A DNA stretch of 64,000 bases from an uncultured Candidatus Saccharibacteria bacterium (GTDB lineage Bacteria; Patescibacteriota; Saccharimonadia; Saccharimonadales; JALRHH01), in assembly GCA_964639295.1 (NCBI GenBank), contig CAZXDT010000001.1, positions 117,068-181,067 on the forward strand, given 5' to 3'. Made by a program: the position numbers and the translations under genes. How positions within the stretch are numbered: the first letter of the stretch is position 1; each line of letters begins with the position of its first letter. Under the pieces are notes generated by a model. That model made no database searches and was not told where the DNA came from. It saw only the letters and a list, made by a program, of their open reading frames with translations. Positions 2,620-57,245 of this stretch are shown here, piece after piece.

Positions 2620-2694
2620 ATTAAGTTATATTATACCATATATGTCAATATATCCAAGATAACCTACTCTTTAACAATCTGCTAGAGTATACGT

Positions 2695-3477: not shown

Positions 3478-4076
3478 AAACTTCACATGTTATTCTCTAT
3501 ATCCCTGGGCTTGGGGACAAAAACCTTGGTGGACGACGAAAGCTGCTTTCACTCTGGCATTACAAGAATGTCTCTATTGAAATCTGCCCGATGTACTGGA
3601 CGGTTGACGAAACATGGCAGGTAAAACTAAGTAAACTACTAGCAAGAGTCGACGAGTTACACGCTCAAGGTAGGGTTGTGTCACTTATTGGCGAAAGTGC
3701 AGGCGCAACAGCTGTCGTTCAGGCACTCGAACAGAGGACTAGCTCTTTGAACCTCGTCATACTGCTTTGCGGCAAATCCCAGTTTCCGGAACGGGTGGCT
3801 GCAGCTCGCTATCGTGACAACCCAGCGCTCAAGAATGCCTTAGTTGCATCATCGCAGGCAGTTGCCAGACTTACCCCATCTCAAAAATCTATGATGATCA
3901 ATCTACACCCATTATTTGATCCAGTTGTGCCAGTACCCGAGACTAAAATACCCGAGGTCAAAAATATAATGATGCCGAGTATTGGTCATGCAACAAGTAT
4001 TGTCTTTGCAAACACACTTTGGAGCTGGAAGATTGTTCGGTGTATCAAAAAATCAGCTAATAGTCGTACCGACTGA
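3474..4076 (+). CDS. putative alpha/beta hydrolase (lipase-like GxSxG)
   Basis: 200 aa with LIGESAGA (GxSxG). Its start overlaps the stop of the upstream gene. Confidence 0.45.
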   Translation: MKTSHVILYIPGLGDKNLGGRRKLLSLWHYKNVSIEICPMYWTVDETWQVKLSKLLARVDELHAQGRVVSLIGESAGATAVVQALEQRTSSLNLVILLCGKSQFPERVAAARYRDNPALKNALVASSQAVARLTPSQKSMMINLHPLFDPVVPVPETKIPEVKNIMMPSIGHATSIVFANTLWSWKIVRCIKKSANSRTD

Positions 4077-4760: not shown

Positions 4761-4828
4761 TGGGTACCAGTGTAGCATATCTATCCCTGCGCTTGACACG
4801 CAGATCGTGTTACATAACACTAAGTATT

Positions 4829-5773
4829 ATGAGTCCAGATACAAACACGCCGCTCGGGCAACCAACACCCGTAACCGAACCACAAATCGCGAGAGCACCT
4901 GCATATAAGCTCTTTTCCTACGGCAGCATGCTCGTAGGTACCATCTTTGGCAGTGGTTTTGCATTCATATATTTCATGTATAAAAACTATAAGAATATGG
5001 GCATGCTCGGCAAAGCATGGACAAGTATCCCACTAGGACTCCTCGGGTTTGGAGCGATTATTTTTGGCACCATTTTCCTGGAAGACCACACATCCATAAC
5101 GCTAAACGCTGGTTCTGTGAACGGGATATATATAGCCTGCGCAATGTTAGCTATTCGAGCAACCCAGTACGAACGCGTTATGCAACATAAAAAATCCGGC
5201 GGCGAATTTTACTCAGGCGTACGAGTATTTATTATTTCGGTACTCGGGCTGCTACTGGCTCTTAGTACATTCGTAGGGTTGTTACTTATTGATGCTAGGC
5301 AAAACAAGGTATCACTGCTCGACCAACTTTCCATTACCTTATCAAATTATGATTCTGAAAAGCACGATCGGCTTATTAACGAGTTCAACGCCAATGAAGA
5401 GAAGGCGCTGGTAGTAAACGAGCTGCCAAGTACTACGCCAAGCAGTCAGTACATTGCGACCCTCGATAGTAGCGTTGCAATCTTCAAGCAAAATCTGAGT
5501 ATTCTAAACGAGATCCAGGCATTACCAGGACTACCTAAAAGACTGCAGCAAGATAATAGCAAGATGATTGAGTATGTGAATCTACGTATTCAAGAGTTTG
5601 GGTTACTTAAGCAAGAGGAGGTTGAAAAGGACTACGCCAAATACAAGAGTGAAATAGAGAGTATAGGCAATCGTATCCGTGCAATACAAAAGGAATTGGG
5701 CATTGAAGACACTACGCCAGCGCCTGACATGAGCCCGAGCAGCCTCACAGTCGACCCCGACCCATTGAATTAA
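4829..5773 (+). CDS. hypothetical membrane protein with a coiled C-terminal half
   Basis: Track ORF 4760..5773. The likely start is MSPDTNTPLG at 4829. Several hydrophobic helices are followed by a charged region. Confidence 0.5.
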   Translation: MSPDTNTPLGQPTPVTEPQIARAPAYKLFSYGSMLVGTIFGSGFAFIYFMYKNYKNMGMLGKAWTSIPLGLLGFGAIIFGTIFLEDHTSITLNAGSVNGIYIACAMLAIRATQYERVMQHKKSGGEFYSGVRVFIISVLGLLLALSTFVGLLLIDARQNKVSLLDQLSITLSNYDSEKHDRLINEFNANEEKALVVNELPSTTPSSQYIATLDSSVAIFKQNLSILNEIQALPGLPKRLQQDNSKMIEYVNLRIQEFGLLKQEEVEKDYAKYKSEIESIGNRIRAIQKELGIEDTTPAPDMSPSSLTVDPDPLN

Positions 5774-5816
5774 TTGCCAATAACCTGACAGCAATACTTA
5801 GAGATTGGAAGTAGTA

Positions 5817-5843
5817 AACACTCGCATCGAGCGAGTGTTTTTT
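5817..5843 (+). terminator. rho-independent terminator
   Basis: AACACTCGC-ATCGA-GCGAGTGTT followed by a T-run. Confidence 0.6.
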
Positions 5844-5870
5844 ATAACGGAGACATACTATACTAGTGAT

Positions 5871-6668
5871 ATGAAGATATACAGTTGGAACGTGAACGGA
5901 ATCAGGGCAGTTGTCAAAAAAGAAACTTTTCAAAGCTTCATGGCAGAGCACCAACCCGATATTCTGTGCCTACAAGAAACCAAGGCAGAACAGGGTCAAG
6001 CAATAATTGACCTAGATGGATATATGGAATACTGGAACTCGTCCCAGGCAAAAAAAGGCTACAGCGGTACTGCTATCTTTACCAAGACCACGCCTATTGC
6101 AGTTATTAATGACATCCCCGCAGAAATAGCGGATGCCAGTGGCCTTACTGCTGATGGATACGGTGATGCAAATAAAGAAGGTCGTGTTATCGCTGCTGAA
6201 TATGATGATTTTTATGTCGTAACTGCTTATACCCCAAACGCCAAAGATGGGCTAGCGCGCATTGATCTACGGCAGAAATGGGATGCAGCTATGATCACAT
6301 ATTGTGCGCAACTTCAGGAGAAAAAGCCTGTTATTTACTGTGGTGATATGAATGTTGCGCACACAGAAGACGACCTTGCAAACCCTAAGTCTAATCGTGG
6401 CAAAAAGGGCTTTAGCGATGAAGAACGTGCTGGGTTTGATGACTGGCTCGCAGCTGGTTTTATAGATACCTTACGGTTATTCAAAAAGGGTAATGGATTC
6501 TACACTTGGTGGAGCCACTTTGCTAATGCTCGTGCACGAAACGTTGGTTGGCGCATCGATTACTTCCTCGTATCTGCAAGTATCAAGGATATAGTCAAAG
6601 CTGCAGAGATACACCCATCAGTCATGGGCTCCGACCACTGCCCAGTCAGTGTACAAATGGACTTTTAG
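5871..6668 (+). CDS. xth: exodeoxyribonuclease III
   Basis: MKIYSWNVNGIRA, LCLQETK, C-terminal GSDHCPV. Start set at the internal Met of the track ORF. Confidence 0.9.
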   Translation: MKIYSWNVNGIRAVVKKETFQSFMAEHQPDILCLQETKAEQGQAIIDLDGYMEYWNSSQAKKGYSGTAIFTKTTPIAVINDIPAEIADASGLTADGYGDANKEGRVIAAEYDDFYVVTAYTPNAKDGLARIDLRQKWDAAMITYCAQLQEKKPVIYCGDMNVAHTEDDLANPKSNRGKKGFSDEERAGFDDWLAAGFIDTLRLFKKGNGFYTWWSHFANARARNVGWRIDYFLVSASIKDIVKAAEIHPSVMGSDHCPVSVQMDF

Positions 6669-7460
6669 ATGAGCTTGAATGAATACTGGCTCAAGCAGAC
6701 AACGGGGAAGCTACTCTTCCCAGAATTAGAGTGGTCTAAGCCAGAGAATAAACGACATGCAGGTAAGTTGCTCGTCATCGGTGGTAATTTGCATGGATTT
6801 TCTGCACCAGCAACCGCATTCAATGAGGCGGGTAAGGCAGGTATTGGTACTGCACGAGTTCTACTACCAGACGCTATCCAGAAAGTTGTTAAGACATTCT
6901 TGCCAGAAGCCAGCTATGGTCCAAGCACGCCAAGTGGTAGCTTTGCTCAGCGTAGTATTGCTGACTGGCTAGAACAGGCAAGCTGGGCTGACGGAGTACT
7001 ACTGGCAGGCGATCTTGGACGCAATAGTGAAACCGCAATTGTAGTAGAATCATTTCTGCAAAAACACACCGGAGCCGTTACGCTAACTAAAGATGCTGTG
7101 GATTATGTTACTACTAACCCTAGCCATGTACTGTCCCGACAGGACACCACACTCGTCCTTAGCTTTGCGCAACTACAGAGACTAGCTATTAACGCTAAGT
7201 TTACGAGCGCATTCACGTTTGATATGGATCTCATTCGACTGGTTGGCATGCTCCACGAATTCATTACCACGCATCAGTCATATATTGTCACCAAGCATCT
7301 TGATACTTTACTCGTTGCGGTAAACGGACAAGTTAGCACAACCAAGCTCGCAAAGGACATTGATGTGTGGCGCGCTGCTACGGCAGCCAAAACTGCTGTA
7401 TGGTGGCTCCAGCACCCAAACAAACCATTCGAAGCCCTGACAACCGCCCTTGTTGCCTAG
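6669..7460 (+). CDS. YjeF C-terminal/carbohydrate-kinase-like protein (divergent NAD(P)HX dehydratase-like)
   Basis: LLVIGGNLHGFSAPATAFNEAGKAGIGTARVLLP resembles the YjeF_C N-terminal signature. The usual C-terminal GxGD motif is not evident. Confidence 0.45.
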   Translation: MSLNEYWLKQTTGKLLFPELEWSKPENKRHAGKLLVIGGNLHGFSAPATAFNEAGKAGIGTARVLLPDAIQKVVKTFLPEASYGPSTPSGSFAQRSIADWLEQASWADGVLLAGDLGRNSETAIVVESFLQKHTGAVTLTKDAVDYVTTNPSHVLSRQDTTLVLSFAQLQRLAINAKFTSAFTFDMDLIRLVGMLHEFITTHQSYIVTKHLDTLLVAVNGQVSTTKLAKDIDVWRAATAAKTAVWWLQHPNKPFEALTTALVA

Positions 7461-7500
7461 AGGAGGGTGTAGTACAATACACCCCTGTAATATGATTTAA

Positions 7501-7588
7501 GCCGCGGTGGTGGAATTGGTAGACACGCCGGACTCAAAATCCTGTGAGCATTACGCTCGTGCCGGTTCAAGTCCGGCCCGCGGTACCA
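7501..7588 (+). tRNA. tRNA-Leu (anticodon CAA), CCA encoded
   Basis: Acceptor GCCGCGG/CCGCGGT. Anticodon loop CTCAAAA. Long variable arm. T-arm GCCGG-TTCAAGT-CCGGC. Confidence 0.9.
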
Positions 7589-7597
7589 AATAAAAAA

Positions 7598-7619
7598 CTC
7601 TACACGCGTAGAGTTTTTT
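7598..7619 (+). terminator. rho-independent terminator after tRNA-Leu
   Basis: CTCTAC-ACGC-GTAGAG followed by TTTTTT. Confidence 0.7.
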
Positions 7620-7655
7620 ATTTAGTTAAGCGCTACAGGTATAATAGGAATCAAC

Positions 7656-8885
7656 ATGGACCCATCAGATGACGATCAGACAAAACGGTACGACCTGTCA
7701 GCCCGCAATGACAAGGTTATTCAGCCCCTACATGATAATATCCAACCTGCCTCTCCAGTGAGTACTAATGCTGCTGCAGATCTTATCCGTAGCAAGCTCG
7801 ATAGCCTGTTTGCTGACGAACCCAAAGCTAAAGAAGAGATCGCTGAAGCAGAAGTCGTAAAACACCGTAGTAAGCACCAACAATTCATGTATGATCTGAG
7901 TCACTCTGGTAAATCCTTAGCAGATATCCAGACGCAGTGGCACCAATACTATGTGAACCTGCCGAATGACCAAAAACACGAAGTCTGGCAGGAATTCTAT
8001 GCCACACATAATCAAATCAATGTAGCTAAACCAGTGTCCCATAGCAATACCCCAGCTCATCGTGAGGCGCCGCAGCATCCTGCACATGTAGCAACAACAC
8101 ACGACCAACGGACCGCATCAGAAGTGAAGCAAGAACTCCTTGGTCACGTCCGAAAACGCCGCAAACTGACCAAGAAAGACCATTTGCATTCTCTTGCGTT
8201 TGGACTCAGCATGGGCCTAATCACCATATTATTCCTGTTATTTGGATTCTTTAACGAACGATTTATTGCGCCGTTTATTACCCCAAGCCGTAGTGTGAGC
8301 TCAACACCCATAATTATTGACCCGACTAATGCAGCAGTGGGTCCTGAATCTAAAATAATAATTCCGAAAATTAATGTAGAGATCCCTGTTATCAATGACG
8401 TACCCACTATCGAGGAGTCAGCTGTAGAGAAGGGTCTTGAACGGGGAGTTGTGCACTACGCTACTACCCCCAACCCCGGGGAAATCGGCAATGGTGTGAT
8501 ATTTGGCCACTCTGCCAACAACATCCTCAATCATGGCAAGTATAAATTCGCCTTTGTCCTGCTCAAACGACTCGAACCTGGAGATGTGTTCTATATTCAG
8601 AAGGACGGTAAGCGCTATGCCTACAAGGTTTTTGAAAAAAAGGTCGTACCACCAACTGATGTCTCAGTGCTATATCCAACATACCCAGATAAGCCGGCAA
8701 CCTTCACGCTCATCACCTGTGACCCACCAGGAACAAGCCTAAACCGTCTTGTAGTACATGCAGAGCAGATAAGCCCAGATCCAAAGGCTAACACCGCCAG
8801 CACCGCCAAACACACGACTGCTGAGCCGACAGTCTTGCCCAGCAACTCTCCGACACTCTGGCAGCGTATAAAAGACTGGTTCTAA
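7656..8885 (+). CDS. sortase family transpeptidase with a long N-terminal extension
   Basis: TM segment, then a catalytic domain with VIFGHSANN (His), TLITCDPPGT (TLxTC Cys) and a downstream Arg. Confidence 0.8.
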   Translation: MDPSDDDQTKRYDLSARNDKVIQPLHDNIQPASPVSTNAAADLIRSKLDSLFADEPKAKEEIAEAEVVKHRSKHQQFMYDLSHSGKSLADIQTQWHQYYVNLPNDQKHEVWQEFYATHNQINVAKPVSHSNTPAHREAPQHPAHVATTHDQRTASEVKQELLGHVRKRRKLTKKDHLHSLAFGLSMGLITILFLLFGFFNERFIAPFITPSRSVSSTPIIIDPTNAAVGPESKIIIPKINVEIPVINDVPTIEESAVEKGLERGVVHYATTPNPGEIGNGVIFGHSANNILNHGKYKFAFVLLKRLEPGDVFYIQKDGKRYAYKVFEKKVVPPTDVSVLYPTYPDKPATFTLITCDPPGTSLNRLVVHAEQISPDPKANTASTAKHTTAEPTVLPSNSPTLWQRIKDWF

Positions 8886-8888: not shown

Positions 8889-9152
8889 ATGAGCAAGAAA
8901 AAACCTGTTGATGAAATCCAGCGCGGTTGGGATATATTTAAACGTCCAAACGATGGACAATTATTCCAACATTACAAGGGTGGGAAGTACATAATTGTTG
9001 CTACTGGTTTTTTAGAAGATAGCGAATCTCCGTGTGTCATATACCGTTCATTAGAAAAGAATATTGTCTGGGTACGCACCGCTAAAAATTTTCTCGAGGA
9101 AATCGAGCACAACGGCAAACAGGTGCCTCGGTTTAGACTAGTAGAAGGGTAA
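8889..9152 (+). CDS. DUF1653 domain protein
   Basis: FQHYKGGKYIIVATGFLEDSESPCVIYRSL...VWVRTAKNFLE matches my recollection of the DUF1653 pattern. Confidence 0.55.
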   Translation: MSKKKPVDEIQRGWDIFKRPNDGQLFQHYKGGKYIIVATGFLEDSESPCVIYRSLEKNIVWVRTAKNFLEEIEHNGKQVPRFRLVEG

Positions 9153-11866: not shown

Positions 11867-11954
11867 ATCATATTATTGCAACTAGTCAAAATTATTGGTA
11901 CCATAACAGCGTAACTTTTTGTTATTGCAGACGTTATGTGATTTCCCATGTACT

Positions 11955-12295
11955 GGAAGGCCGATGGTGCCACGAGCGAACTAACATCACCCCACGATGC
12001 GCTTGTGTTAACCCCCAGGCCATCGGCCTTCCGCCAACTGTTAGCGAAGCTCCTTCTCCCGGCAGGAGTAGAGTTAGCTAACAACAGGACCGACCGGCAG
12101 CTGTGTCTGTTCCTCTTCTCGAGGAGCTTCCTGTCAATCTGACACAGTGTGCTCAAGCAGCACTGCCGGTCGGTCCGTACTACCAGACTGAGATGAGCCC
12201 GAATGAAGCTTCCATAGTGTGGTTTCCCACACTAGGCACTTCGGTGACCATTGCTCCTCAGGAAGCTTCTGGTGCATCGGGCTCATCTCTCTGGT
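11955..12295. ncRNA. candidate large structured RNA of unknown class (strand undetermined)
   Basis: Perfect long-range stems: 11955-11967/12020-12032 (13 bp), 12087-12100/12163-12176 (14 bp) enclosing 12101-12107/12141-12147 (7 bp), and 12190-12202/12277-12289 (13 bp) enclosing 12205-12213/12261-12269 (9 bp). Only GC-artefact-looking ORFs overlap it. Confidence 0.4.
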
Positions 12296-21977: not shown

Positions 21978-22385
21978 ATGGATGATACACAAGTTACCCC
22001 CAATGGCATCAAAGTACTCGTTATAGAGGATGAGCACTTCATTAGCGAGCTGTACACACGTGCGCTCGGCAAGGCCGGTTATGAGAGCAAGGTCGTCGTT
22101 GACGGGGAAGAGGGTCTAAAAGAAGCTCAAACTGATACTTATGACGTTATCCTACTAGATATCATGATTCCAAACCTGACCGGATCAGAAATCCTAAGTC
22201 GCCTCCGCGCGCCAGATGCCAAGCCTATTCGTGCCAAAATCATTATTGCTACTAACCTGGAGCAGGGTGAACAGGGTCGCGCAGCAGTAGAGCAAAAAGC
22301 CGACGGCTACATAGTCAAAGCGGAAATGACCCCACGGCAATTAGTCGAATTCCTCGACCAATTCCACCTCGAAAACCGCAAATAA
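21978..22385 (+). CDS. single-domain response regulator (receiver only)
   Basis: VLVIEDE, DVILLDIMIPNLTG, GYIVKA. No output domain. Confidence 0.85.
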   Translation: MDDTQVTPNGIKVLVIEDEHFISELYTRALGKAGYESKVVVDGEEGLKEAQTDTYDVILLDIMIPNLTGSEILSRLRAPDAKPIRAKIIIATNLEQGEQGRAAVEQKADGYIVKAEMTPRQLVEFLDQFHLENRK

Positions 22386-22387
22386 TT

Positions 22388-22440
22388 TCACTTTTCGTCC
22401 TTTTGGACTCGTCAGTACGACTTACATTCGTATAAGTGAT
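22388..22440 (-). ncRNA. type III hammerhead ribozyme motif (HH1)
   Basis: Minus strand reads TCACTT-A|TACGA-ATGTAAG-TCGTA-CTGACGA-GTCC-AAAA-GGAC-GAA-AAGTGA. Stem III is 6 bp, stem I 5 bp, stem II 4 bp with G10.1/C11.1. Cleavage triplet is UUA. The 3' edge lies 3 nt from the convergent response-regulator stop codon. Confidence 0.82.
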
Positions 22441-22523
22441 ATTACAAGAAGGAGGTGGTGTTTGGCGTGCGTGGGGCACCAGATTCTGCTTTCGCAAGAA
22501 AATGATGCCCCACGCAGAATGAC

Positions 22524-22868
22524 TCAGTTGAACGTGATGTTCAGGTGGCCGGTACGGCGACGAGTGCTGTAGTAGCCCTCGAAGGTACCACCGCGTGCGG
22601 TGATGCCGTTGGCGTGTGCCTGAGTGGGGTAGTTGCCCTTGATGATCCAGCTTTCACCAGAACCGTCTTCAGCAGCAATACCCGTGACCTGGAGAAACTC
22701 CTCCGAGATTGCCGGGTCGCCACGCAGCGCCTCGGAGTGTCCCTTCACACGGAAGAGCTTCACGACGCGCATGCCATCATTGCCGATCATGCCGATCAAC
22801 GAGAGCTGCTGGAACAGGTCGAACTTGTTGTCACCATCGGTGATCACGAACTTCTCTACGGTAGACAC
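22524..22868 (-). CDS. small GC-rich cassette protein (114 aa), unknown function
   Basis: GTG start 6 nt after AAGGAG. G/C-rich third positions contrast with neighbouring genes. The C-terminus GGTFEGYYSTRRRTGHL resembles that of ORF 38972..39415. Confidence 0.6.
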   Translation of the reverse strand: MSTVEKFVITDGDNKFDLFQQLSLIGMIGNDGMRVVKLFRVKGHSEALRGDPAISEEFLQVTGIAAEDGSGESWIIKGNYPTQAHANGITARGGTFEGYYSTRRRTGHLNITFN

Positions 22869-22889
22869 CAGTCTACTCCTTCTTGTAAA

Positions 22890-22978: not shown

Positions 22979-23007
22979 ATTATAGCAAAATTATGTAGTT
23001 TTGTCAA
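22979..23007 (-). promoter_or_regulatory. consensus sigma-70-type promoter driving the HH1 cassette
   Basis: Minus strand reads TTGACA-N17-TATAAT. Both hexamers are perfect, with a 17-nt spacer. Confidence 0.7.
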
Positions 23008-25634: not shown

Positions 25635-25826
25635 ATTATATAATTTATTATATCTGGTGTCCACAGAGTAGCTTGTCATGTGTACAATCTGTTAAAACAC
25701 ATAAAGGTATTGCTTATTTTAGTATTTTATGTTATTATAACGCTCGTCTTCGTTAATATAACGTTGATGCACCCGTCATGGTCCAAATTGGATCAGACAC
25801 CACAATCAGTTCAGAAGGGAACACTC

Positions 25827-26360
25827 GTGAAGCGCAAGCTCATGATCGTCAGCGCGTTCGTCCTTTGCTTCGTCGTCGGCATCACCCTCATGGGGAACAC
25901 CGCCGCCAACGCCAAGGGCAAGCCCGCACCGGCCACCGACCCGTCATCGCTCGTCGCCAACGTGTACATCAACTACTCGCAGGACTACAACGGCAACTTC
26001 GTCGTCTACGCCAGCCAGTTCGATCACATGGAGGCCACTGAGTGGGGCTCCTACCCGGTGTTCGAGCCCTGCGCTCCGGAGGTCTGCGGCACGCTGGTGA
26101 TCAGCCACAAGGGCAAGACGCCGACGCTGACGCTGACGCTGTCCAAGCTCGCCACCGAGACACTCGTGTCCGGCAGCAAGAGCTACAGCAGCCCGGACTA
26201 CTCGCAGTACCACTACTACACCTGGGACGGCTCGTCCATCCCGCTGGTGCGGAAGTTCAAGGACTCGGGCAAGCCCGTCTCCGTACCGCTGCAGTACGCA
26301 TCGATCAGCCTGTACCTCGAGGGTGCTCCGGTACCCCCGTCGGGCTCGTGCTGCAAGTGA
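25827..26360 (+). CDS. GC-rich secreted protein, unknown function
   Basis: GTG start after GAAGGGA. Signal-like VKRKLMIVSAFVLCFVVGITLMGNTAANA. Line 26041-26100 counts 42/60 G+C. The AT-rich N-terminal extension in the track ORF is probably leader, not coding. Confidence 0.6.
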   Translation: MKRKLMIVSAFVLCFVVGITLMGNTAANAKGKPAPATDPSSLVANVYINYSQDYNGNFVVYASQFDHMEATEWGSYPVFEPCAPEVCGTLVISHKGKTPTLTLTLSKLATETLVSGSKSYSSPDYSQYHYYTWDGSSIPLVRKFKDSGKPVSVPLQYASISLYLEGAPVPPSGSCCK

Positions 26361-26508
26361 TGTTCTGACGTCGTGGGAGGCAACACCTCAACAGGAGTTG
26401 CCTCCCACGGCTCACATCACCCCGCACGCACCACAATCCCTTCTGAACTATTACACTTTGATTTTTTGCCAAAGAACCCTAAAAGGGTTCTTTTTTTATC
26501 AAGCAAAA

Positions 26509-27888: not shown

Positions 27889-27910
27889 TGGTGATCTCGA
27901 GGGGAATCGA
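27889..27910 (-). repeat. 22-nt direct repeat of the tRNA-Glu 3' end (att-like)
   Basis: TGGTGATCTCGAGGGGAATCGA is identical to 28076-28097. Identity stops inside the T-loop. Confidence 0.85.
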
Positions 27911-28041
27911 CCTACCTTCGGCAGGCCCGAAACTACGTCCTTGAAAACCAGTTTTCAAGAGTAGGTTTCCTTGCGAATTGCCACAGGCAATTCTCACCCT
28001 ATTACCAGCCGGCAACAGGCGTTTGATTCCGCAATAACAGT

Positions 28042-28075: not shown

Positions 28076-28150
28076 TGGTGATCTCGAGGGGAATCGAACC
28101 CCTATTGCCAGGATGAGAACCTGGCGTCCTAACCGTTAGACGACGAGACC
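28076..28150 (-). tRNA. tRNA-Glu (anticodon CTC), CCA encoded
   Basis: Minus strand reads GGTCTCGTCGTCTAACGGTTAGGACGCCAGGTTCTCATCCTGGCAATAGGGGTTCGATTCCCCTCGAGATCACCA. Anticodon loop is TTCTCAT. Confidence 0.9.
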
Positions 28151-28304: not shown

Positions 28305-29228
28305 GTGAAGGCTATGCACATTTTGAAGTGGTGCACCGTCGTGATCGTAGCGGTGATCTTCATCGCATGGTTCATCGACGCACGCATGAAGAAGACATTC
28401 CGCAAGCAGGCAGATGCCTGGCTCGAGGAGCGCACGGCAGTTCGCGAGTCCGGTAACACACAGCAGATCCTGCAGTTCCTGGACTCCAACCCGGTACCGG
28501 CTGGCAGTAAGCGGTTCGGTGACATCAGGCTGGCTCTCGGCGCGCACAAGCGTCTCTGCGAGGAGCTCAAAGACGAGATCAAGCTCGGGAAGCGTCGCAA
28601 GTACAACGCAGGCAGGGTCAACAAGATCAAGCTGATCGACTCGATCGACGAGCAGTACAATGCGTTGATCAACATCGGTGAACTGCGGTTCGGCCAGATG
28701 GTGGATGGTTATCGGTATTCCGACAGAGTCGTTCTTAATCCCAAGGACGCCGAGTGGATCACCGCTGAGCTGACCAAGCTGGCCGCCGCCAAAGCAGCAC
28801 GCTTGCTAGCTGCCGCCGAGAACGGTGACCAGGGAGCGTTCATGGAACTCCATGAGTTCACCCGCAAGAGTTCTGATACATGGGCTAGCAGAGAGGAGTA
28901 CATTCGACAGACGATGGGCAAGCCCTACGAGACACCACCCAACTGGGACGAGCTACTGGTCCGTTTCTACGAGAACCCCACGGTGAACCAGTTCCGTTGC
29001 CAGGTAAGTCCCTCGGCTTACGGTGATGCCGGCATCAGCACGATGGCTGCTCAGGCTCTTCGCAAGCGCAATCTCGTAGTGCTCCGTTACATCATGGTGC
29101 GCTGTGCAACTTACGGGGGTTACCGCGCTGAGCTGGGTGACGTCTTGTACGCCGAGATCGTCAAGATGGCCGATCAGCTGTACACCGAGCTGAAGACCAG
29201 CTCCACCTGCACCACCACAATTTCATAA
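28305..29228 (+). CDS. GC-rich membrane-anchored protein (307 aa), unknown function
   Basis: N-terminal TM helix (WCTVVIVAVIFIAWFI). Line 28441-28500 counts 36/60 G+C. G/C-ending codons. Confidence 0.6.
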   Translation: MKAMHILKWCTVVIVAVIFIAWFIDARMKKTFRKQADAWLEERTAVRESGNTQQILQFLDSNPVPAGSKRFGDIRLALGAHKRLCEELKDEIKLGKRRKYNAGRVNKIKLIDSIDEQYNALINIGELRFGQMVDGYRYSDRVVLNPKDAEWITAELTKLAAAKAARLLAAAENGDQGAFMELHEFTRKSSDTWASREEYIRQTMGKPYETPPNWDELLVRFYENPTVNQFRCQVSPSAYGDAGISTMAAQALRKRNLVVLRYIMVRCATYGGYRAELGDVLYAEIVKMADQLYTELKTSSTCTTTIS

Positions 29229-37661: not shown

Positions 37662-37911
37662 TACAGACTTTTACAGATATAATTCAGTATAAATACTCTT
37701 GCTTAAATAAGCAGATTGTTTTATACTTGATAGGTTTTGTTGACGGTTTGAGAACATTTTTCTCACCTCCAAAATGCACATTTGACAAGTAGATTGAGCC
37801 GCACAAAGCGAGGCATCGGACCATGGGTGGAAATGGTTCGTTTTCTCGCTTTGTGCCACAGAAGAGCACGTCATTACGCATGATACCCGCGAGAGCAAGT
37901 TAGGAGCCGCC

Positions 37912-38214
37912 ATGTACCTTAAGCGACGCGATCGTGTACTCGTATACGGACCGTCGAACGCTCAGTTTGCACTTCTCGGTTTGAACATTGATCAAACCAG
38001 AGCAGAGCAACTGGAGCGTGTGATCAAGCAAAGATTCAGAGCTGAGATCACCAGTGTTTGGGTCAGTCCTGACGTCCCCGGACAGTTCAGTGTCATGATC
38101 AGTGAAGACAAGTCCCGCACACCCTCGAGCCACCTGCTCGAACGCGTGGCCCGCTTCACACAGTACGACATCGGCTGGAACCCCAATAACACCCAAGTTA
38201 TCACCCGACCCTGA
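37912..38214 (+). CDS. small GC-rich cassette protein (100 aa), unknown function
   Basis: AGGAG lies 7 nt upstream of the ATG. G/C-rich codons. The 193-aa antisense ORF 37900..38481 is judged a GC artefact. Confidence 0.55.
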   Translation: MYLKRRDRVLVYGPSNAQFALLGLNIDQTRAEQLERVIKQRFRAEITSVWVSPDVPGQFSVMISEDKSRTPSSHLLERVARFTQYDIGWNPNNTQVITRP

Positions 38215-38223
38215 AAGGCACAC

Positions 38224-38412
38224 ATGCTTCGACCTACGCGAGATGACAACGGTTACCCGGTCTACGAAGGACGACAGTACGTCGACCTGCACATCGCAAT
38301 CCACGGCTTCGACCCGACTCCTACGGCCCACAACACCACGCCCATCCGCTCTACCAGGAACAACAGTTCCAACGCTGGCCTGGTGAGCTGGTTCTTCGGC
38401 TTGTTCCTGTAG
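38224..38412 (+). CDS. small GC-rich cassette protein (62 aa) with a hydrophobic C-terminus
   Basis: Follows the previous ORF by 9 nt. Ends GLVSWFFGLFL. Same composition as the previous ORF. Confidence 0.4.
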   Translation: MLRPTRDDNGYPVYEGRQYVDLHIAIHGFDPTPTAHNTTPIRSTRNNSSNAGLVSWFFGLFL

Positions 38413-38510
38413 GGACACGCTGATTGCCAAGGGGGCGACCAATACCCACACGCTGCGTGTGTTGGTCGCCCTCGGCGCCACTCTTCAAACCCCGCTCTCT
38501 ACTTGTCAAA

Positions 38511-38577
38511 TTCACTATACGAATAGGGGACCACGCGTCCCGAGTCGTACTGATGAGTCGTAAACGACGAAAGTGAA
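38511..38577 (+). ncRNA. type III hammerhead ribozyme motif (HH2)
   Basis: TTCACT-A|TACGA-(ATAGGGGACCACGCGTCCCGAG)-TCGTA-CTGATGA-GTCG-TAAA-CGAC-GAA-AGTGAA. The cleavage site (CUA) lies after 38517. Stem I is capped by an inner GGGAC/GTCCC hairpin. Confidence 0.85.
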
Positions 38578-38591: not shown

Positions 38592-38833
38592 TTGCGTTGA
38601 AGGCTAAAGCCTTCACCACCTTCTTTTCTGTGCCGACAGAAAAGAAGCAAAAGAGGCTCGTGGCGACATCAAAACGAGATTACAAGTATAACCTGGCTAT
38701 TTGCGTATCGACAGAACGCAAGCGGCCCATTTTTTTATTTAGGATCAAAATGGGCATGCTGTCGGTTTGATTCGCAAATAGTCTGAATACTTGTATCTGT
38801 TTTGCTGAGCCACCCAACCACGCCCGGACGGTT
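38592..38833 (+). ncRNA. unclassified structured element, copy A1 (A-type middle domain)
   Basis: TTGCGT, HP1 TGAAGGC-TAAA-GCCTTCA, HP2 CTTCTTTTCTGT-GCCG-ACAGAAAAGAAG, then GAAGCAAAAGA. Internal helices covary with copy A2. The 3' motif is CCACGCCCGGACGGTT. Confidence 0.6.
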
Positions 38834-38861
38834 GAGGGGATTGTTAACAATATGGTATAAT
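38832..38861 (+). promoter_or_regulatory. probable promoter of the HH3 cassette (extended -10)
   Basis: TTGAGG-N18-TGgTATAAT. The -35 overlaps the 3' end of element A1. Confidence 0.55.
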
Positions 38862-38917: not shown

Positions 38918-38949
38918 GTAACAGAGGTCTGGCTCTGATTCCATGACAC
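38918..38949 (+). promoter_or_regulatory. conserved 5' leader motif (paralogue of 22890-22921)
   Basis: GTAACAGAGGTCTGGCTCT-GATT-CCATGACAC. Confidence 0.55.
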
Positions 38950-38971
38950 CTATTAACAAGGAGGTGGACGT

Positions 38972-39415
38972 ATGTCCACTGCACAAGAAAAAATCGTTGT
39001 CCCTAAAAGACTGGAGATCTTCAAAGGTCCAGGGTTCGGTGAACTGAACGGACAACTGACAGACATCAGTCGTTCGGTTGCATTGGATGGGAAGCGATTT
39101 CCGTTCACGTTCCACGTGAGGCCTATTGATGTGCCGGATAAGGACGAGTTCACCCTTGAAGTGCTGCTTAGCGGGCTTGCTTCCGTGCACGGTGATGGCT
39201 ACTCGTACCGGTTTCCTTCATATGCTGAAAAAGAGCGTGAGTGGTACTTCCGCGGTGTTGTAGATAATTACGGAAGTGAGAGCAGTAACGCTGGGCTGTA
39301 CAAGAGCATCATGTTCGGCGGGGCTGATCCAGTGATCATCAAACAGTGCCGTGGTCGCTACGACACGCACAGCCGTAGTGGCTACATTGAGCCGGGAAGC
39401 TGGAAGTTCGAGTGA
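38972..39415 (+). CDS. small GC-rich cassette protein (147 aa), unknown function
   Basis: AAGGAGG lies 7 nt upstream of the ATG. The C-terminus CRGRYDTHSRSGYIEPGSW aligns with FEGYYSTRRRTGHLNITF of ORF 22524..22868. Confidence 0.6.
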   Translation: MSTAQEKIVVPKRLEIFKGPGFGELNGQLTDISRSVALDGKRFPFTFHVRPIDVPDKDEFTLEVLLSGLASVHGDGYSYRFPSYAEKEREWYFRGVVDNYGSESSNAGLYKSIMFGGADPVIIKQCRGRYDTHSRSGYIEPGSWKFE

Positions 39416-39476
39416 CGTGCCGGGAGGCGATGTTGATGCGTTCGCATCGCCTCCCGCAGTCCCTCCTTGTTAATAA

Positions 39477-39529
39477 TCACTTATACAAATGTGTATTTGT
39501 ACTGATGAGACCAAAAGGTCGAAAAGTGA
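39477..39529 (+). ncRNA. type III hammerhead ribozyme motif (HH3)
   Basis: TCACTT-A|TACAAAT-GTGT-ATTTGTA-CTGATGA-GACC-AAAA-GGTC-GAA-AAGTGA. Cleavage (UUA) occurs after 39483. Confidence 0.85.
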
Positions 39530-42378: not shown

Positions 42379-42406
42379 TTGCTTATACTCATAAAAATGA
42401 TATAAT
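42379..42406 (+). promoter_or_regulatory. possible promoter of the HH4 cassette
   Basis: TTGCTT-N16-TATAAT. The GATATAATT context resembles 37676-37684 upstream of the HH2 cassette. Confidence 0.4.
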
Positions 42407-42554
42407 TATCACGTTTTGTTGATGCCCGTAAAGCGTCCAAACGTTATTTGACAAGTAGACAAGAAAGAAATGACAGAAGAGTCTAGCTTACTAGGTTGTT
42501 CTGTCATTTCTTCAAGAGAACACCCAACCCCTCCCAGTTAGGAAGCGTGAGTAC

Positions 42555-42890
42555 ATGAAGCACCGCATGACCGAGGTTGAAAAGAAAGTTGCTGATCTGG
42601 AATACCGGACCAGTATTACCTTCGACGAAGAGCAGAACGTATGGCGCCTTACCTGTGAGTCCGTCGATATCTCGACCCCCTCACATCCGAAAACGGGCAG
42701 AGTACCTCCCGAAGTCTTGTGTGACTTCAGAGAAGCTGTCGCCAAGACATACCGAGGACGTCTGCTTCGAGGACAGGTCATCACCGCCATAAGCCGCCGC
42801 TATGAAGAGGCCATCACGAAGTACAAACCCTTCATCAGACGACAAACCATGTTCGACGAGATGCGAGCGGTCGCTGGTCAGATCAGTTGA
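42555..42890 (+). CDS. small GC-rich cassette protein (111 aa), unknown function
   Basis: GGAAG precedes the ATG. The composition contrasts with flanking topA. Confidence 0.55.
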   Translation: MKHRMTEVEKKVADLEYRTSITFDEEQNVWRLTCESVDISTPSHPKTGRVPPEVLCDFREAVAKTYRGRLLRGQVITAISRRYEEAITKYKPFIRRQTMFDEMRAVAGQIS

Positions 42891-42974
42891 TCACGTAGAC
42901 GGGGGTGGGTGTGCACTCGAGTTGCTGCCTCTGGCCGCACTCCTGCGCATTCTCGCCCCCGTCTACTTGTCATA

Positions 42975-43031
42975 TCTTTACTATACGAATGCGTATTTGT
43001 ACTGATGAGATCAAAAGATCGAAAGTAAAGA
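42975..43031 (+). ncRNA. type III hammerhead ribozyme motif (HH4)
   Basis: TCTTTACT-A|TACGAAT-GCGT-ATTTGTA-CTGATGA-GATC-AAAA-GATC-GAA-AGTAAAGA. Stem III is 8 bp. Cleavage (CUA) occurs after 42983. Confidence 0.85.
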
Positions 43032-43222
43032 TAAACCTTATCCACAAGTTGAACACCTAGCAACATCATTTTGTTGTAATATTTCTATGCAATTATTGGG
43101 CAGGGAAGTCTATTTAGTGCTAGAATAAGTGCATAAGCGTGGATGTATTGACTTAAAAACAATATTGTTTTACAATAGTACCTAATTACTTGATATAACA
43201 GATTAACGTAAGGATTATAGTA

Positions 43223-56942: not shown

Positions 56943-57169
56943 TTGCGTTGAAGGCTAAAGCCTTCACCACCTTCATTTCTTGTGTCGACAAGAAACTGAA
57001 GCAAAGAAACTCGGACTGCGTTTTGTCTCCGGGATGCCTGGCAAGCAATTGAGCCTAAAATTTTGGAACTCGCGGTTTAGCGCTTCAAACAGCCAAAATT
57101 TCAGAACGGCTCAATTCTATGCCAGTCCTCTCGGGCCGAAGCCGATGTCCGGACCACGCCCGGACGGTT
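56943..57169 (+). ncRNA. unclassified structured element, copy B2 (B-type middle domain)
   Basis: The first 33 nt (56942-56974) are identical to A1 38591-38623. The B-type core is collinear with B1 and has compensatory helices (CAATTGAGCC/GGCTCAATT versus AATCTGG/CCAGATT). The 3' 16 nt CCACGCCCGGACGGTT are identical to A1. Confidence 0.55.
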
Positions 57170-57245
57170 TATCAATAATCATAAAGCCTGTGTACAAGCA
57201 AAAAAACGGCGAGGAATTCTCGTCGTCGGCTTAAATGCTTAAATA

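Follow-up and report, generated by a model that had tools for sequence, protein, structure and literature searches.

The window, a stretch of 64,000 nucleotides, belongs to a Saccharibacteria chromosome. Because it carries cellular housekeeping genes, is syntenic with Saccharibacteria MAGs and has no phage DNA match, a phage or prophage origin was rejected. Among its housekeeping genes, which include dprA, topA, a sigma-like gene and a response-regulator gene as immediate neighbours, lie small gene units that we number as modules. Modules 1 to 4 each end in a type III hammerhead motif (HH1 to HH4), listed here with bit scores from the Rfam model RF00008 and from R1, a covariance model built from 87 related hammerheads:

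22388..22439, minus strand: HH1, type III hammerhead; predicted cleavage after A22433; R1 65.6 bits, RF00008 25.1 bits
38511..38577, plus strand: HH2, type III hammerhead with an extra hairpin in loop 1; predicted cleavage after A38517; R1 56.9 bits, RF00008 20.1 bits
39477..39529, plus strand: HH3, type III hammerhead; predicted cleavage after A39483; R1 72.6 bits, RF00008 22.7 bits
42973..43033, plus strand: HH4, type III hammerhead with a 10-bp stem III; predicted cleavage after A42983; R1 69.0 bits, RF00008 32.0 bits

These are the only complete type III hammerheads on either strand of the window, as determined with a descriptor of our own (the CUGANGA and GAA strands, 3 bp or more in stem II, 4 bp or more in each of stems I and III, and any base but G at H17), for which first-order Markov simulations of the window give a chance expectation of 0.02 matches on average. 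An initial annotation had placed full type III cores at the same four sites; the letters read as it gave them, and its cleavage positions (22433|22432 on the minus strand, 38517|38518, 39483|39484 and 42983|42984) are right by counting. The core strand C3 U4 G5 A6 N7 G8 A9 reads CTGACGA in HH1 and CTGATGA in HH2 to HH4, and C3 to A9, G12A13A14, A15.1-U16.1 and a non-G H17 (A in the window; C, A or T in relatives) are intact in all four copies, as is the G10.1-C11.1 pair that closes helix II. The topology is that of type III: loops cap helices I and II, and helix III is open. The MFE fold of HH2 is the hammerhead fold. In thermodynamic folds of whole precursors the hammerhead is part of the MFE structure in module 4 only, and stem III reaches a probability of 0.97 there, of 0.32 in module 2 and of less than 0.1 in both module 1 and module 3; with the hammerhead mostly outside the precursor MFE, cleavage would depend on co-transcriptional folding, or might be regulated. 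The four sites are genuine hammerhead motifs, and we infer that they cleave themselves.

A search of the window at Rfam gathering thresholds reports no hammerhead. The initial annotation had pointed to RF00008 (Hammerhead_3) as a check and had named sub-threshold scores at all four sites as grounds for rejection. Under E-value thresholds RF00008 is indeed the best Rfam family at every site, and all four scores do fall below its gathering score of 48.5 bits, which is the curation cut-off of one model and no biochemical criterion. R1, from whose training set HH2 was left out, scores the four sites at 56.9 bits or higher, the next best site in the window reaching 9.9 bits; HH2 itself obtains E = 6e-18, and a search with filters off finds no further hammerhead in the window. 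We judged the sub-threshold criterion inadequate because these scores, the excess of complete motifs among relatives and the pairing statistics of the stems (both below) speak otherwise. The low RF00008 scores reflect a compact, lineage-specific subfamily and are no sign that the motif is absent. The family therefore escapes standard Rfam annotation and needs a dedicated model.

Scanning 185,579 species genomes with a pattern that fixed only the core and loop 2 yielded about 90 relatives. Stems I and III and a non-G H17 are also present in 76 of 90 genome matches, compared with 0.9% when the flanks are random. Patescibacteria account for 63 of the 76 named genome records (83%), and 47 of these are Saccharibacteria, a spread of which the initial annotation was unaware. 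The catalytic nucleotides are invariant in 87 distinct copies, in part by construction, since the pattern fixed the core strand and G10.1-C11.1; position 16.1, which the pattern left free, is T in 87 of 87. Standard pairs fill 94.6% of pair cells, as against 30–45% when the partners are slid, and double changes occur in 14 of 17 pairs (5 of 6 in helix III, 6 of 7 in helix I, 3 of 4 in helix II), so that the covariation first noticed among the window copies extends across the 87 relatives to all three stems. A U-G atop stem I, likewise unconstrained by the search, is at least 90% conserved. Stem I comes in two forms, one of 7 bp closed by GYGU and one of 5 bp with a loop of 7–9 nt, stem II has 4 bp with an AAAA or UAAA loop, and stem III has 4–10 bp; two sets of loops 1 and 2 recur, namely 7 bp and GYGU with AAAA, and 5 bp and a long loop with GYCG-UAAA-CGRC. 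The conserved U-G and the recurring loop sets bear on a putative tertiary contact of loops 1 and 2, which hammerheads need to be active at physiological Mg2+. Some relatives look degenerate; L111 and L115, for example, carry a U at 10.1. A viral origin of the family was considered and rejected: 10 IMG/VR contigs carry the motif, and L100, the one examined, encodes GroEL and has no phage hallmark genes. In the literature searched, no paper ties self-cleaving ribozymes, hammerheads included, to Saccharibacteria, Patescibacteria or CPR. The hammerhead class itself is known; this subfamily, its context and its coupling to the 5'-3' pairing described below appear to be undescribed.

The family members hold a constrained position with respect to the gene that precedes them. 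About 74% of roughly 96 members have a same-strand upstream gene, with a median distance of 84 nt from stop codon to hammerhead; in the window the distances are 84, 98, 61 and 82 nt for HH1 to HH4, within the 60–100 nt first reported. The 100 nt on the 5' side of the hammerhead are strongly structured across the family (mean z of −3.3, against −1.8 downstream), and terminator-like sites there occur at the random rate (10 of 91 compared with 59 of 600). Fail-safe terminators just 3' of the hammerheads are not enriched either (19 of 90, compared with 99 of 516 other gene ends). A shared upstream protein family was sought and rejected: an all-against-all BLAST of 73 ORFs gave only two three-member clusters, and 8 of 68 have a Pfam match.

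In the window, modules 1 to 4 share a common order of features, which are given here from promoter to 3' arm:

Module 1
22979..23007, minus strand: sigma-70 consensus promoter, TTGACA-17-TATAAT with upstream TG; 12 of 12 matches
22876..22888, minus strand: 5' arm TTACAAGAAGGAG, over the u1 Shine-Dalgarno; inverted repeat I11, 13 nt, 100%; paired in the MFE fold, probability 0.91
22524..22868, minus strand: u1, 114-aa orphan ORF; GC3 0.75; AAGGAG 7 nt before the GTG start; gene call on Logan contigs
22468..22516, minus strand: GC-rich 3'-UTR hairpin with no T-run; inverted repeat I5
22442..22454, minus strand: 3' arm CTCCTTCTTGTAA, ending 2 nt before HH1

Module 2
37780..37793, plus strand: 5' arm ATTTGACAAGTAGA, in the leader; inverted repeat I8, 14 nt, 100%; pair probability 0.97
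37801-37856, plus strand: leader hairpin of 24 bp, 3' of the 5' arm
37912..38412, plus strand: u2a and u2, one reading frame with an in-frame TGA at 38212-38214; GC3 signal unbroken across the TGA
38433..38471, plus strand: GC-rich 3'-UTR hairpin with no T-run; read from the sequence
38498..38511, plus strand: 3' arm TCTACTTGTCAAAT, abutting HH2

Module 3
38832..38861, plus strand: promoter, TTGAGG-18-TATAAT with TG; 10 of 12 matches; downstream of HH2
38951..38964, plus strand: 5' arm TATTAACAAGGAGG, over the u3 Shine-Dalgarno; inverted repeat I10, 14 nt, 100%; pair probability 0.95
38972..39415, plus strand: u3, 147-aa orphan ORF; AGGAGG 7 nt before the ATG
39421..39456, plus strand: GC-rich 3'-UTR hairpin with no T-run; inverted repeat I16
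39462..39475, plus strand: 3' arm CCTCCTTGTTAATA, ending 1 nt before HH3

Module 4
42398..42406, plus strand: extended -10 (TGaTATAAT) upstream of the leader; read from the sequence
42446..42460, plus strand: 5' arm ATTTGACAAGTAGAC, in the leader; inverted repeat I9, 15 nt, 93%; pair probability 0.68
42465-42512, plus strand: leader hairpin of 22 bp, 3' of the 5' arm
42555..42890, plus strand: u4, 111-aa orphan ORF
42892..42969, plus strand: long GC-rich 3'-UTR hairpin with no T-run; inverted repeat I2
42961..42975, plus strand: 3' arm GTCTACTTGTCATAT, overlapping the first bases of the extended stem III of HH4

The -10 of module 4 was missed by the promoter scan because its -35 is weak. A motif TTGTCA...TCACTATA on the 5' side of the hammerheads was considered as a promoter (phage T7-like, or a sigma-70 -35); this reading was dropped because no -10 lies at a workable spacing and because the motif is the reverse complement of leader sequence. 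The GC-rich hairpin without a T-run that the initial annotation had described between stop codon and hammerhead is present in all four modules, and with the T-run absent none of the four hairpins passes an intrinsic-terminator test (hairpin plus U-tract). Rfam searches with the leader motif, a repeat that follows HH2 and a structured region at 11.9-12.3 kb gave no matches.

The ORFs upstream of the hammerheads are GC-rich, as had been noted, with GC3 values of 0.57–0.76 compared with 0.48–0.53 in housekeeping genes. We consider it unlikely that they are non-coding, given strong Shine-Dalgarno sequences at the right spacing, periodic GC3 and gene calls elsewhere for two of them; the u2a/u2 assignment is the shakiest of the four, and the coding content of module 2 is doubtful. 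No homologue of u1 was found in syntenic loci, and a protein search with u3 returned only itself among 5.8e9 proteins and only weak partial matches among 1.8e9 representatives. The modules vary in presence and absence among syntenic Saccharibacteria genomes, with different orphan ORFs at the same spots: the dprA-topA interval holds differing ORFs in the window, L035 and L076, as does the rlu-der interval in L007, L073 and L074. GC content between the arms is 0.52–0.62, versus 0.32–0.47 in the flanks.

Each hammerhead is directly preceded by 12–15 nt that form the reverse complement of part of its own gene's 5' leader, a complementarity that the initial annotation overlooked. In modules 1 to 4 these inverted repeats are 13–15 nt long and 93–100% complementary, differ in sequence from module to module, and are paired in whole-transcript MFE folds with probabilities of 0.68–0.97. 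Across the family, exact reverse-complement matches of at least 10 nt occur upstream in 16 of 87 members, compared with 1 of 70 downstream and 1 of 87 for direct repeats, and in 14 of the 16 arm-bearing members the match lies 0–3 nt from the hammerhead; clear arms are a feature of only about a quarter of family members. Different genomes have an TTNACAAG/CTTGTNAA core of the arms in common, and metagenome copies show a covarying extension of an TGACAAGCA core. The arms are nearly all Watson-Crick, sense and antisense duplex energies are alike, and the few mismatches are roughly balanced between G:U (5) and A.C (3), so that an RNA-level role is not separable on these grounds from a DNA-level inverted repeat. 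The 5' arm lies over the Shine-Dalgarno or ribosome-binding site in modules 1, 3 and 5 and elsewhere in the leader in modules 2 and 4. Translation would be repressed by a 13-bp duplex covering the Shine-Dalgarno, an odd property in a unit whose promoter matches the consensus.

A further unit in the window, module 5, has the arms and no hammerhead:

25808..26500, plus strand: module 5, without hammerhead; identified from inverted repeats I12 and I7, the terminator scan and the sequence; arm pair probability 0.97
25808-25820, plus strand: 5' arm AGTTCAGAAGGGA, over the Shine-Dalgarno
25827-26360, plus strand: ORF with signal peptide; GC3 0.93
26372-26409, plus strand: GC hairpin
26437-26449, plus strand: 3' arm
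26471-26493, plus strand: intrinsic terminator, then seven T

In another genome, L124 has the same arms and likewise carries an intrinsic terminator in the hammerhead's position. Judged from sequence, then, hammerhead and intrinsic terminator interchange at one position, which lends independent support to the initial suggestion that the ribozyme takes a terminator's place. An orthologue of module 5, L133, encodes a protein 63% identical to that in the window, and both its arms are 100% identical. Fresh horizontal transfer as the source of the high GC3 is weakened by this orthologue, which keeps its high GC3 at that degree of protein divergence.

Several other explanations bear on these observations. 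Reading the motifs as look-alikes that arose by chance, or as relics that have decayed and lost activity, would fit their scores below the Rfam gathering threshold, their short, AU-rich stems II and III and the degenerate look of relatives such as L111 and L115, but four were found where 0.02 are expected, no catalytic position varies among the 87 distinct sequences and the stems show covariation, and we give this reading almost no credence. Hardly more credible is the idea that HH2 and HH3 together free an RNA whose 5'-OH and 2',3'-cyclic phosphate ends are brought close by the arms and sealed into a circle by an RtcB-type ligase. The two lie 966 nt apart on the same strand with no terminator-like site between them, and Perreault et al. 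raised such a possibility for tandem prophage hammerheads (PMC3088659), yet they did not detect circular products; moreover, module 3 is served by a promoter of its own beyond HH2, modules 1 and 4 carry a single hammerhead each, and the 5' arm is internal to the transcript, away from any ribozyme-made 5' end. The hammerheads might instead serve the genes downstream, trimming long or read-through leaders of topA, the sigma-like gene and others to a structured 5'-OH end in the manner of RiboJ. The next downstream gene is on the same strand in about 58% of members, the body of the hammerhead stays on the downstream RNA after cleavage as a 5' structure, and in the haloarchaeal viruses HF1/HF2 a hammerhead precedes a start codon by 13 nt (PMC3088659). 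Against this, HH1 has no downstream gene on its own strand and faces a conserved convergent gene, that of the response regulator, whose stop lies 2 nt away; in 11 of 36 convergent cases in the family the opposite stop is 0–3 nt from the hammerhead; distances to the downstream start scatter from 3 to >900 nt (189–522 nt in the window), whereas the distance from the upstream stop is tight; and the predicted promoters of u3 and of the sigma-like gene sit downstream of HH2 and HH4. We hold a role of this kind to be improbable.

A less remote, though still unlikely, explanation is that the arms act on DNA. The GC-rich ORF and its hairpin would then form either an invertible segment or a mobile or captured cassette, for which phage morons, MITEs and integron cassettes are parallels, set in a conserved platform that supplies promoter, leader and hammerhead. 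The hammerhead would either move with the element or be part of the site where it docks, and the host would benefit only secondarily, if at all. This would account for the presence/absence variation with different orphan ORFs at the same spots, the GC contrast between the inter-arm segments and their flanks, the perfect Watson-Crick arms with an TTNACAAG/CTTGTNAA core kept across genomes, the lack of an excess of G:U over A.C, and the mutually unrelated ORFs with so few Pfam matches. However, inspection by eye found no target-site duplications or direct repeats around the arms, and no transposase or recombinase gene is present among the window genes examined. Within one genome the arms of different copies have only an ACAAG core in common, which is not what the ends of a transposon family show; with differing repeats, no flanking direct repeats and unrelated cargo ORFs, the modules do not have the makeup of a transposon or MITE. 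Nor does a DNA-level role sit easily with the 5' arm on the ribosome-binding site in three modules, with the long vertical persistence of L133 (protein 37% diverged, arms unchanged, GC3 still high), or with the single orientation found in contigs from SRR8931239, SRR8931241 and SRR8931242, and it leaves the exact 0–3 nt abutment to stem III unexplained.

The reading that we favour, with a probability of about 0.6, is that active type III hammerheads close independent units and form the 3' ends of panhandle mRNAs in a terminator's stead. On this view each unit starts from a strong promoter, of consensus type or with an extended -10, and runs through the leader and an orphan ORF that is small and GC3-rich to a GC-rich hairpin lacking a U-tract; a C/U-rich linker then closes in the 12–15 nt leader-complementary arm, with the hammerhead 0–3 nt beyond. 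As the polymerase passes, the 3' arm would pair with the 5' arm and close the mRNA as a panhandle; the hammerhead would then fold and cut itself off in vivo, leaving the mRNA with a 2',3'-cyclic phosphate end 7–13 nt beyond the duplex and behind a stable hairpin. The RNA detached with a 5'-OH would be read-through that otherwise enters topA or the sigma-like gene; read-through past HH1, also cut loose, would be antisense to the convergent response-regulator gene. The ribozyme would in this way perform the RNA-end-forming job of an intrinsic terminator, and canonical terminators appear to be infrequent in these genomes. A hammerhead cuts RNA but leaves the polymerase running, and because it cannot stop RNA polymerase it could replace a terminator only as regards formation of the RNA 3' end. 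If the mRNAs of icaR and hbs (below) are a guide, the 5'-3' duplex probably tunes stability, translation or both.

Compared with RF00008 (clan CL00010), the present subfamily has the identical core, three helices, an open end at helix III and cleavage after a non-G H17; it differs in its scores (20–32 bits versus 48.5), in being very compact, and in its location, which centres on Patescibacteria chromosomes instead of viroids, satellites, eukaryotic repeats or prophages. Hammerheads that set an RNA end from an mRNA untranslated region, or that decouple neighbouring sequence, are familiar from the rodent Clec2 3'-UTR hammerhead, which is discontinuous, eukaryotic and lowers expression, and from engineered 3' or insulator ribozymes such as RiboJ, which are synthetic. 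We know of no natural bacterial hammerhead family in this role. Intrinsic terminators follow the 3' arm in module 5 and L124 as the hammerhead does elsewhere, but they release polymerase and leave a 3'-OH U-tail, whereas a hammerhead only cuts and leaves a 2',3'-cyclic phosphate, and the GC hairpins of modules 1 to 4 have no U-tract. Among bacterial hammerheads the nearest likeness is with prophage clusters that flank single genes in Clostridium scindens, Azorhizobium caulinodans and Agrobacterium tumefaciens (Perreault et al. 2011, PMC3088659), where the bracketed genes are non-conserved and mostly hypothetical and the role proposed is the cutting of transcripts to gene-length mRNAs (PMC3088659). 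There, too, several nearby hammerheads bracket single non-conserved genes; the units in the window are instead chromosomal, stand among housekeeping genes with a promoter each, and have hammerheads that are fixed after a 3'-UTR hairpin, abut a leader-complementary arm and are interchangeable with a terminator.

The arms, for their part, resemble two known cases of pairing between the ends of one mRNA. In Staphylococcus aureus icaR, an anti-SD motif in the 3' UTR masks the Shine-Dalgarno and makes an RNase III substrate (PMC3868564), and in Bacillus subtilis hbs a 14-bp long-range duplex modulates RNase Y cleavage (PMC5737220). As in those mRNAs, a 3'-UTR stretch is complementary to the leader of the same transcript, and in modules 1, 3 and 5 the 13–14 nt arm targets the Shine-Dalgarno. 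Whereas icaR and hbs are single, gene-specific cases with ordinary terminators, the predicted pairing here recurs in many unrelated genes, with a partly conserved ACAAG/CTTGT core, 0–3 nt from a hammerhead. By the pattern of their bases the arms qualify for icaR/hbs-type pairing between 5' and 3' UTR, and they may act in this way in the RNA.

The roles of bacterial hammerheads are largely unknown, and most are tied to prophages. This family offers a concrete role, namely 3'-end formation and the insulation of single-gene units, in an informative context of fixed ribozyme position, interchange with a terminator and an adjoining long-range 5'-3' helix. To our knowledge, such helices have so far been described in few bacterial mRNAs (icaR and hbs), and the RNA biology of the candidate phyla radiation is almost unexplored. 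Saccharibacteria have recently become genetically tractable, and compact 50-nt ribozymes with a cassette layout could serve as parts for their genetics. We propose, tentatively and with somewhat less than even confidence, that a modular mRNA architecture with a ribozyme-made 3' end and a 5'-3' panhandle, in which hammerhead and terminator are interchangeable, is lineage-wide in Patescibacteria. If so, these would be the first natural bacterial hammerheads that set chromosomal mRNA 3' ends across a lineage, coupled to pairing between 5' and 3' UTRs, and they could let fast-turning-over orphan genes between essential genes be expressed without disturbing their neighbours.

A descriptor of the type III hammerhead (CUGANGA and GAA, a minimum of 3 bp in helix II and of 4 bp in helices I and III, residue 17 other than G) matched the 64-kb window at exactly four sites, against 0.02 matches expected on average from first-order Markov simulations of the window:

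22439-22388, minus strand: hammerhead HH1
38511-38577, plus strand: hammerhead HH2
39477-39529, plus strand: hammerhead HH3
42973-43033, plus strand: hammerhead HH4

Reading the window sequence bore out the motifs that the initial annotation had written out at these sites, and the cleavage positions it predicted for HH1-HH4 are correct. At gathering thresholds, Rfam returned three tRNAs from the window and no hammerhead family. Under E-value thresholds, RF00008 (Hammerhead_3) was the top family at all four sites, with 25.1, 20.1, 22.7 and 32.0 bits, each below its gathering score of 48.5 bits. The initial annotation had named such scores as grounds for refutation, and the case must therefore rest on other evidence.

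We searched 185,579 species, one genome each, with the pattern GTACTGAYGAGNNNWAAANNNCGAAA, whose only fixed positions are the core, loop 2 and three helix I bases. By record title, the 90 stretches returned comprise 47 from Saccharibacteria or Saccharimonadales, 16 from other Patescibacteria (Woese-, Gottesman-, Kaiser-, Berkel- and Shapirobacteria, Paceibacterota, "Patescibacteria group"), 14 titled "bacterium" without further taxon, and 13 with other labels (Gammaproteobacteria or Pseudomonadales MAGs, Cytophagales, Verrucomicrobiota). The loci with non-Patescibacteria MAG labels are L003, L038, L064 and L087 (one 'Pseudomonadales' MAG); L053, L055, L060, L065 and L066; and L023, L027, L040 and L083. 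They may be mis-binned CPR contigs or true family members beyond Patescibacteria. Helix II has 4 bp in 86 of the 90 matches with full flanks. Although the pattern leaves helices I and III and residue 17 unconstrained, 76 of the 90 form a complete hammerhead, compared with 0.9% when random flanks from the same loci are attached. In an alignment of 87 distinct copies, standard pairs fill 94.6% of pair cells, versus 30-45% when the partners are slid, and U16.1 is invariant although the search pattern left it free. Covariation of the stems, claimed earlier from the four window copies, extends to the family, with changes on both sides in 14 of 17 pairs. A covariance model built from this alignment, with HH2 absent from the training set, found exactly four sites in the window, at 72.6, 69.0, 65.6 and 56.9 bits; the next match scored 9.9 bits. 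We conclude from these sequence comparisons that HH1-HH4 are genuine type III hammerheads, predicted to self-cleave, and that they belong to a compact, lineage-enriched subfamily to which the Rfam model gives too low a score.

Ten IMG/VR contigs classed as viral (L092-L101) also carry family members. One of them, L100, holds three copies (2670-8004); this was the one contig inspected, and the 12 kb covered contain no phage hallmark genes. Its neighbouring genes include GroEL and a gamma-glutamyl-cyclotransferase-like protein.

Each window hammerhead lies directly 3' of a small orphan ORF (u1, u2a/u2, u3 and u4 for HH1 to HH4) in a transcription unit that we call modules 1-4. Promoter elements were located as follows:

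23007-22979, minus strand: u1 promoter, a perfect TTGACA-17-TATAAT with an upstream TG
38832-38861, plus strand: u3 promoter, TTGAGG-18-TATAAT with TG, downstream of HH2
43148-43176, plus strand: the sigma-like gene's own promoter, downstream of HH4

In addition, u4 has an extended -10 element (TGaTATAAT), and a Shine-Dalgarno sequence stands at normal spacing in front of every ORF of the units. These promoters and Shine-Dalgarno sequences indicate that the hammerheads close separate single-gene units, which are probably strongly transcribed, rather than serving as leaders of the next gene.

The units sit in a chromosomal setting; phage DNA was considered as an identity for the window and rejected. 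Window genes encode a histidine kinase, response regulators, a pseudouridine synthase, Der/EngA, peptidyl-tRNA hydrolase, DprA, topoisomerase I and a sigma-region-4/HARE-HTH protein, and the window is syntenic with several Saccharibacteria MAG loci at 65-83% DNA identity. These loci conserve the backbone HK-RR-rlu-der-pth-dprA-topA-sig and contain no counterparts of u1, u2a/u2, u3 or u4. Different small ORFs with a hammerhead occupy the same dprA/topA junction in L035 and L076, and others lie antisense between rlu and der (L007, L073, L074) or at the 3' end of an 857-aa gene (L084, L048, L031). The only match to u3 among 5.8 billion proteins is u3 itself, and 1.8 billion representatives, scanned in full with HMMER, gave weak partial matches only. 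The u2a and u2 ORFs form one reading frame split by an in-frame TGA (38212-38214) and three codons, with GC3 periodicity continuous across the stop; the interruption may mark a pseudogene or a read-through site, or stem from a sequencing error. Called-gene records exist for none of u2a, u2 and a 193-aa antisense ORF.

Crude ORF calls around approximately 96 hammerheads show the same placement across the family. A same-strand neighbour lies upstream in ~74% and downstream in ~58%, and the spacing between the upstream stop codon and the hammerhead varies little (median 84 nt, interquartile range 57-109). Upstream ORFs are small (median 130 aa), are mutually unrelated, match Pfam in 8 of 68 cases, and have a GC3 of 0.62 versus 0.49 for other genes at the same loci. 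Structure is strong in the 100 nt 5' of the hammerhead (mean z -3.3, 76% below -2; -1.8 on the 3' side), and the last 20 nt are rich in C/U and poor in G. Where genes converge, the opposing stop codon falls 0-3 nt from the hammerhead 3' end, the outer end of helix III, in 11 of 36 arrangements (L007, L015, L039, L043, L044, L050, L056, L058, L060, L090 and window 22383-22388), so that the hammerhead appears packed against the end of the neighbouring gene. HH1 is one such case, with a conserved response-regulator gene (21978-22385) stopping 2 nt away.

Immediately 5' of each window hammerhead stand 12-15 nt whose reverse complement occurs in the leader of that unit, a relation seen by eye, confirmed independently by repeat search, and overlooked in the initial annotation. 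These 5' and 3' arms, with their length and complementarity, are:

Module 1, minus strand: 5' arm 22876-22888, 3' arm 22442-22454; TTACAAGAAGGAG / CTCCTTCTTGTAA; 13 nt, 100%
Module 2, plus strand: 5' arm 37780-37793, 3' arm 38498-38511; ATTTGACAAGTAGA / TCTACTTGTCAAAT; 14 nt, 100%
Module 3, plus strand: 5' arm 38951-38964, 3' arm 39462-39475; TATTAACAAGGAGG / CCTCCTTGTTAATA; 14 nt, 100%
Module 4, plus strand: 5' arm 42446-42460, 3' arm 42961-42975; ATTTGACAAGTAGAC / GTCTACTTGTCATAT; 15 nt, 93%

In modules 1 and 3 the 5' arm coincides with the Shine-Dalgarno region. The 5' arms of modules 2 and 4 are found ~100 nt before the start codon, each with a leader hairpin of 22-24 bp after it. Arm sequence varies from module to module around a common ACAAG/CTTGT core while complementarity is kept, and the arms pair with each other in whole-transcript MFE folds (540-790 nt) with probability 0.68-0.97. 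Among 87 family members, 16 have an exact upstream reverse-complement match of at least 10 nt, 14 of these at 0-3 nt from the hammerhead; the controls yield one match in 70 cases downstream and one in 87 for direct repeats. Duplexes at or below -20 kcal/mol occur in 28 of 80 upstream and 9 of 64 downstream regions. A search of metagenomes for hammerheads preceded by CTTGTCA retrieved 25 contigs, ~15 of which carry a TGACAAGCA partner 430-920 nt upstream, with covarying extensions (GCAGACAT/ATGTCTGC, GCAGATA/TATCTGC, GCAGAC/GTCTGC). Clear arms are present in only about one quarter of family members, mostly Saccharibacteria. Behind perfect ACAAGCAGACAT/ATGTCTGCTTGT arms, L111 (~8928-8990) and L115 (~1510-1570) have U for G at 10.1 and a non-canonical helix II closing pair, and may be inactive or variant hammerheads.

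The leaders have other features in common. Those of u3 (38918-38964, plus) and u1 (22921-22876, minus), whose proteins are unrelated, share a ~45-nt motif, GTAACAGAGGTCTGGCTCT-N4-CCATGACAC...ACAAG(A)AGGAG, with no further copy in the fetched loci and no Rfam match; this motif may act as a cis-regulatory element in the leader. Modules 2 and 4 resemble each other in their leaders (37734-37856, 42413-42512): both have GTTTTGTTGAYG just past the promoter, the TTGACAAGTAGA arm, and a long hairpin, of 24 bp in module 2 and 22 bp in module 4, with different sequence and conserved structure. Just 3' of HH2, 38594-38651 (GTTGCGTTGAAGGCTAAAGCCTTCACCACCTTC... and a 12-bp hairpin) is repeated 18 kb away at 56945-57005 with 90% identity, and ACCACGCCCGGACGGTT recurs ~200 nt past each copy (~38833-38848, 57156-57171). 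This repeat has no Rfam match and may be a duplicated small RNA or repeat element.

Hammerheads and terminators interchange behind such arms. The unit we call module 5 has the layout of modules 1-4 with no hammerhead after its 3' arm:

25808-25820 / 26437-26449, plus strand: inverted repeat, 13 nt, 100%
25827-26360, plus strand: signal-peptide ORF (GC3 0.93), its GAAGGGA Shine-Dalgarno spanned by the 5' arm
26372-26409, plus strand: GC hairpin without T-run, followed by a C-rich linker and the 3' arm
26471-26493, plus strand: textbook intrinsic terminator plus seven T at the hammerhead position

The sole homologue of its ORF, in the syntenic place on ENA contig L133, has 63% protein identity. 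L133 retains the terminator, both 13-nt arms 100% identical, and the hairpin with a compensatory change. Arms unchanged at this protein divergence are evidently under purifying selection, and an equally high GC3 indicates a bias that is maintained, not freshly imported. The same holds for L124, where a T-run and terminator hairpin come after the conserved-core arms TGACAAGCGGAAT / ATTCCGCTTGTCA. These two cases are the strongest indirect support for the original proposal that the ribozyme takes the place of a terminator. Across the family, terminator-like sites occur at the random rate 5' of the hammerhead (10/91 vs 59/600) and as often 3' of it as at other gene ends (19/90 vs 99/516); canonical terminators are infrequent overall in genomes carrying the family.

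Two ORFs of the window, 25827-26360 and 28305-29228, combine extreme GC3 (0.93 and 0.75; genome 47% GC) with N-terminal signal or transmembrane segments. Both adjoin tRNA-Glu; the former belongs to module 5, and the latter closes with a hairpin that has 34-bp arms and a T-rich tail. A partial direct copy of the tRNA-Glu 3' half (27889-27925 vs 28076-28112, 81% identity, 187 nt from the gene) resembles a scar left where an element integrated into the tRNA. Elsewhere, three perfect 13-14-bp hairpins (11955-12032, 12087-12176, 12190-12289) lie in a 520-nt gap before a glutamyl-tRNA-synthetase-like gene. At E <= 1, Rfam gave this region (~11950-12290) only one chance-level microRNA-family match (E = 0.31); the gap may harbour a non-coding RNA or form a large structured leader.

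The arms might instead act at the DNA level, as terminal inverted repeats of captured cassettes or as invertible segments. Their pairing is almost purely Watson-Crick, with equal sense and antisense energies and balanced G:U (5) and A.C (3) mismatches, figures that do not separate an RNA-level from a DNA-level role. A DNA-level role would suit the conserved core, the variable presence of modules between genomes and the step in GC from the flanks (0.32-0.47) to the segment enclosed by the arms (0.52-0.62). We nevertheless consider it unlikely: no target-site duplications were found at the arms, arm sequences within one genome are unlike one another, the 5' arm coincides with the ribosome-binding site, L133 attests long vertical persistence, and contigs from three runs show one orientation only.

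Several hammerheads flanking single non-conserved genes are already known from prophages (PMC3088659). Hammerheads in bacteria, and long-range 5'/3'-UTR pairing in a few bacterial mRNAs, are likewise known. Literature searches of incomplete coverage found neither a link between hammerhead or other self-cleaving ribozymes and Saccharibacteria, Patescibacteria or CPR, nor a hammerhead that abuts a 5'-3' helix or is interchangeable with a terminator; given that coverage, the missing precedents are absence of evidence only.

If the arms pair in RNA, the long-range helix would form in the nascent transcript once the 3' arm is transcribed, and the hammerhead would fold next and cleave. The hammerhead shape is the MFE structure for three of the four isolated window sequences; in thermodynamic folds of whole precursors it lies within the MFE for module 4 alone (stem III probability 0.97); module 2 reaches 0.32 and modules 1 and 3 stay below 0.1, so one has to invoke kinetic folding or regulation. 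Cleavage would leave an mRNA ending in a 2',3'-cyclic phosphate, 7-13 nt beyond the long-range helix and behind a stable hairpin, and would cut read-through RNA loose with a 5'-OH. More speculatively, by analogy with glmS and RNase J1, an RNase J-type enzyme could degrade the detached RNA 5'-to-3' and then dislodge the polymerase. Uncut read-through would enter topA or the sigma-like gene, or form antisense RNA against the convergent response regulator. The duplex itself would set stability and/or translation, by analogy with icaR, where anti-SD pairing blocks translation and provides an RNase III substrate (PMC3868564), and hbs, where a 14-bp 5'/3' duplex modulates RNase Y (PMC5737220).
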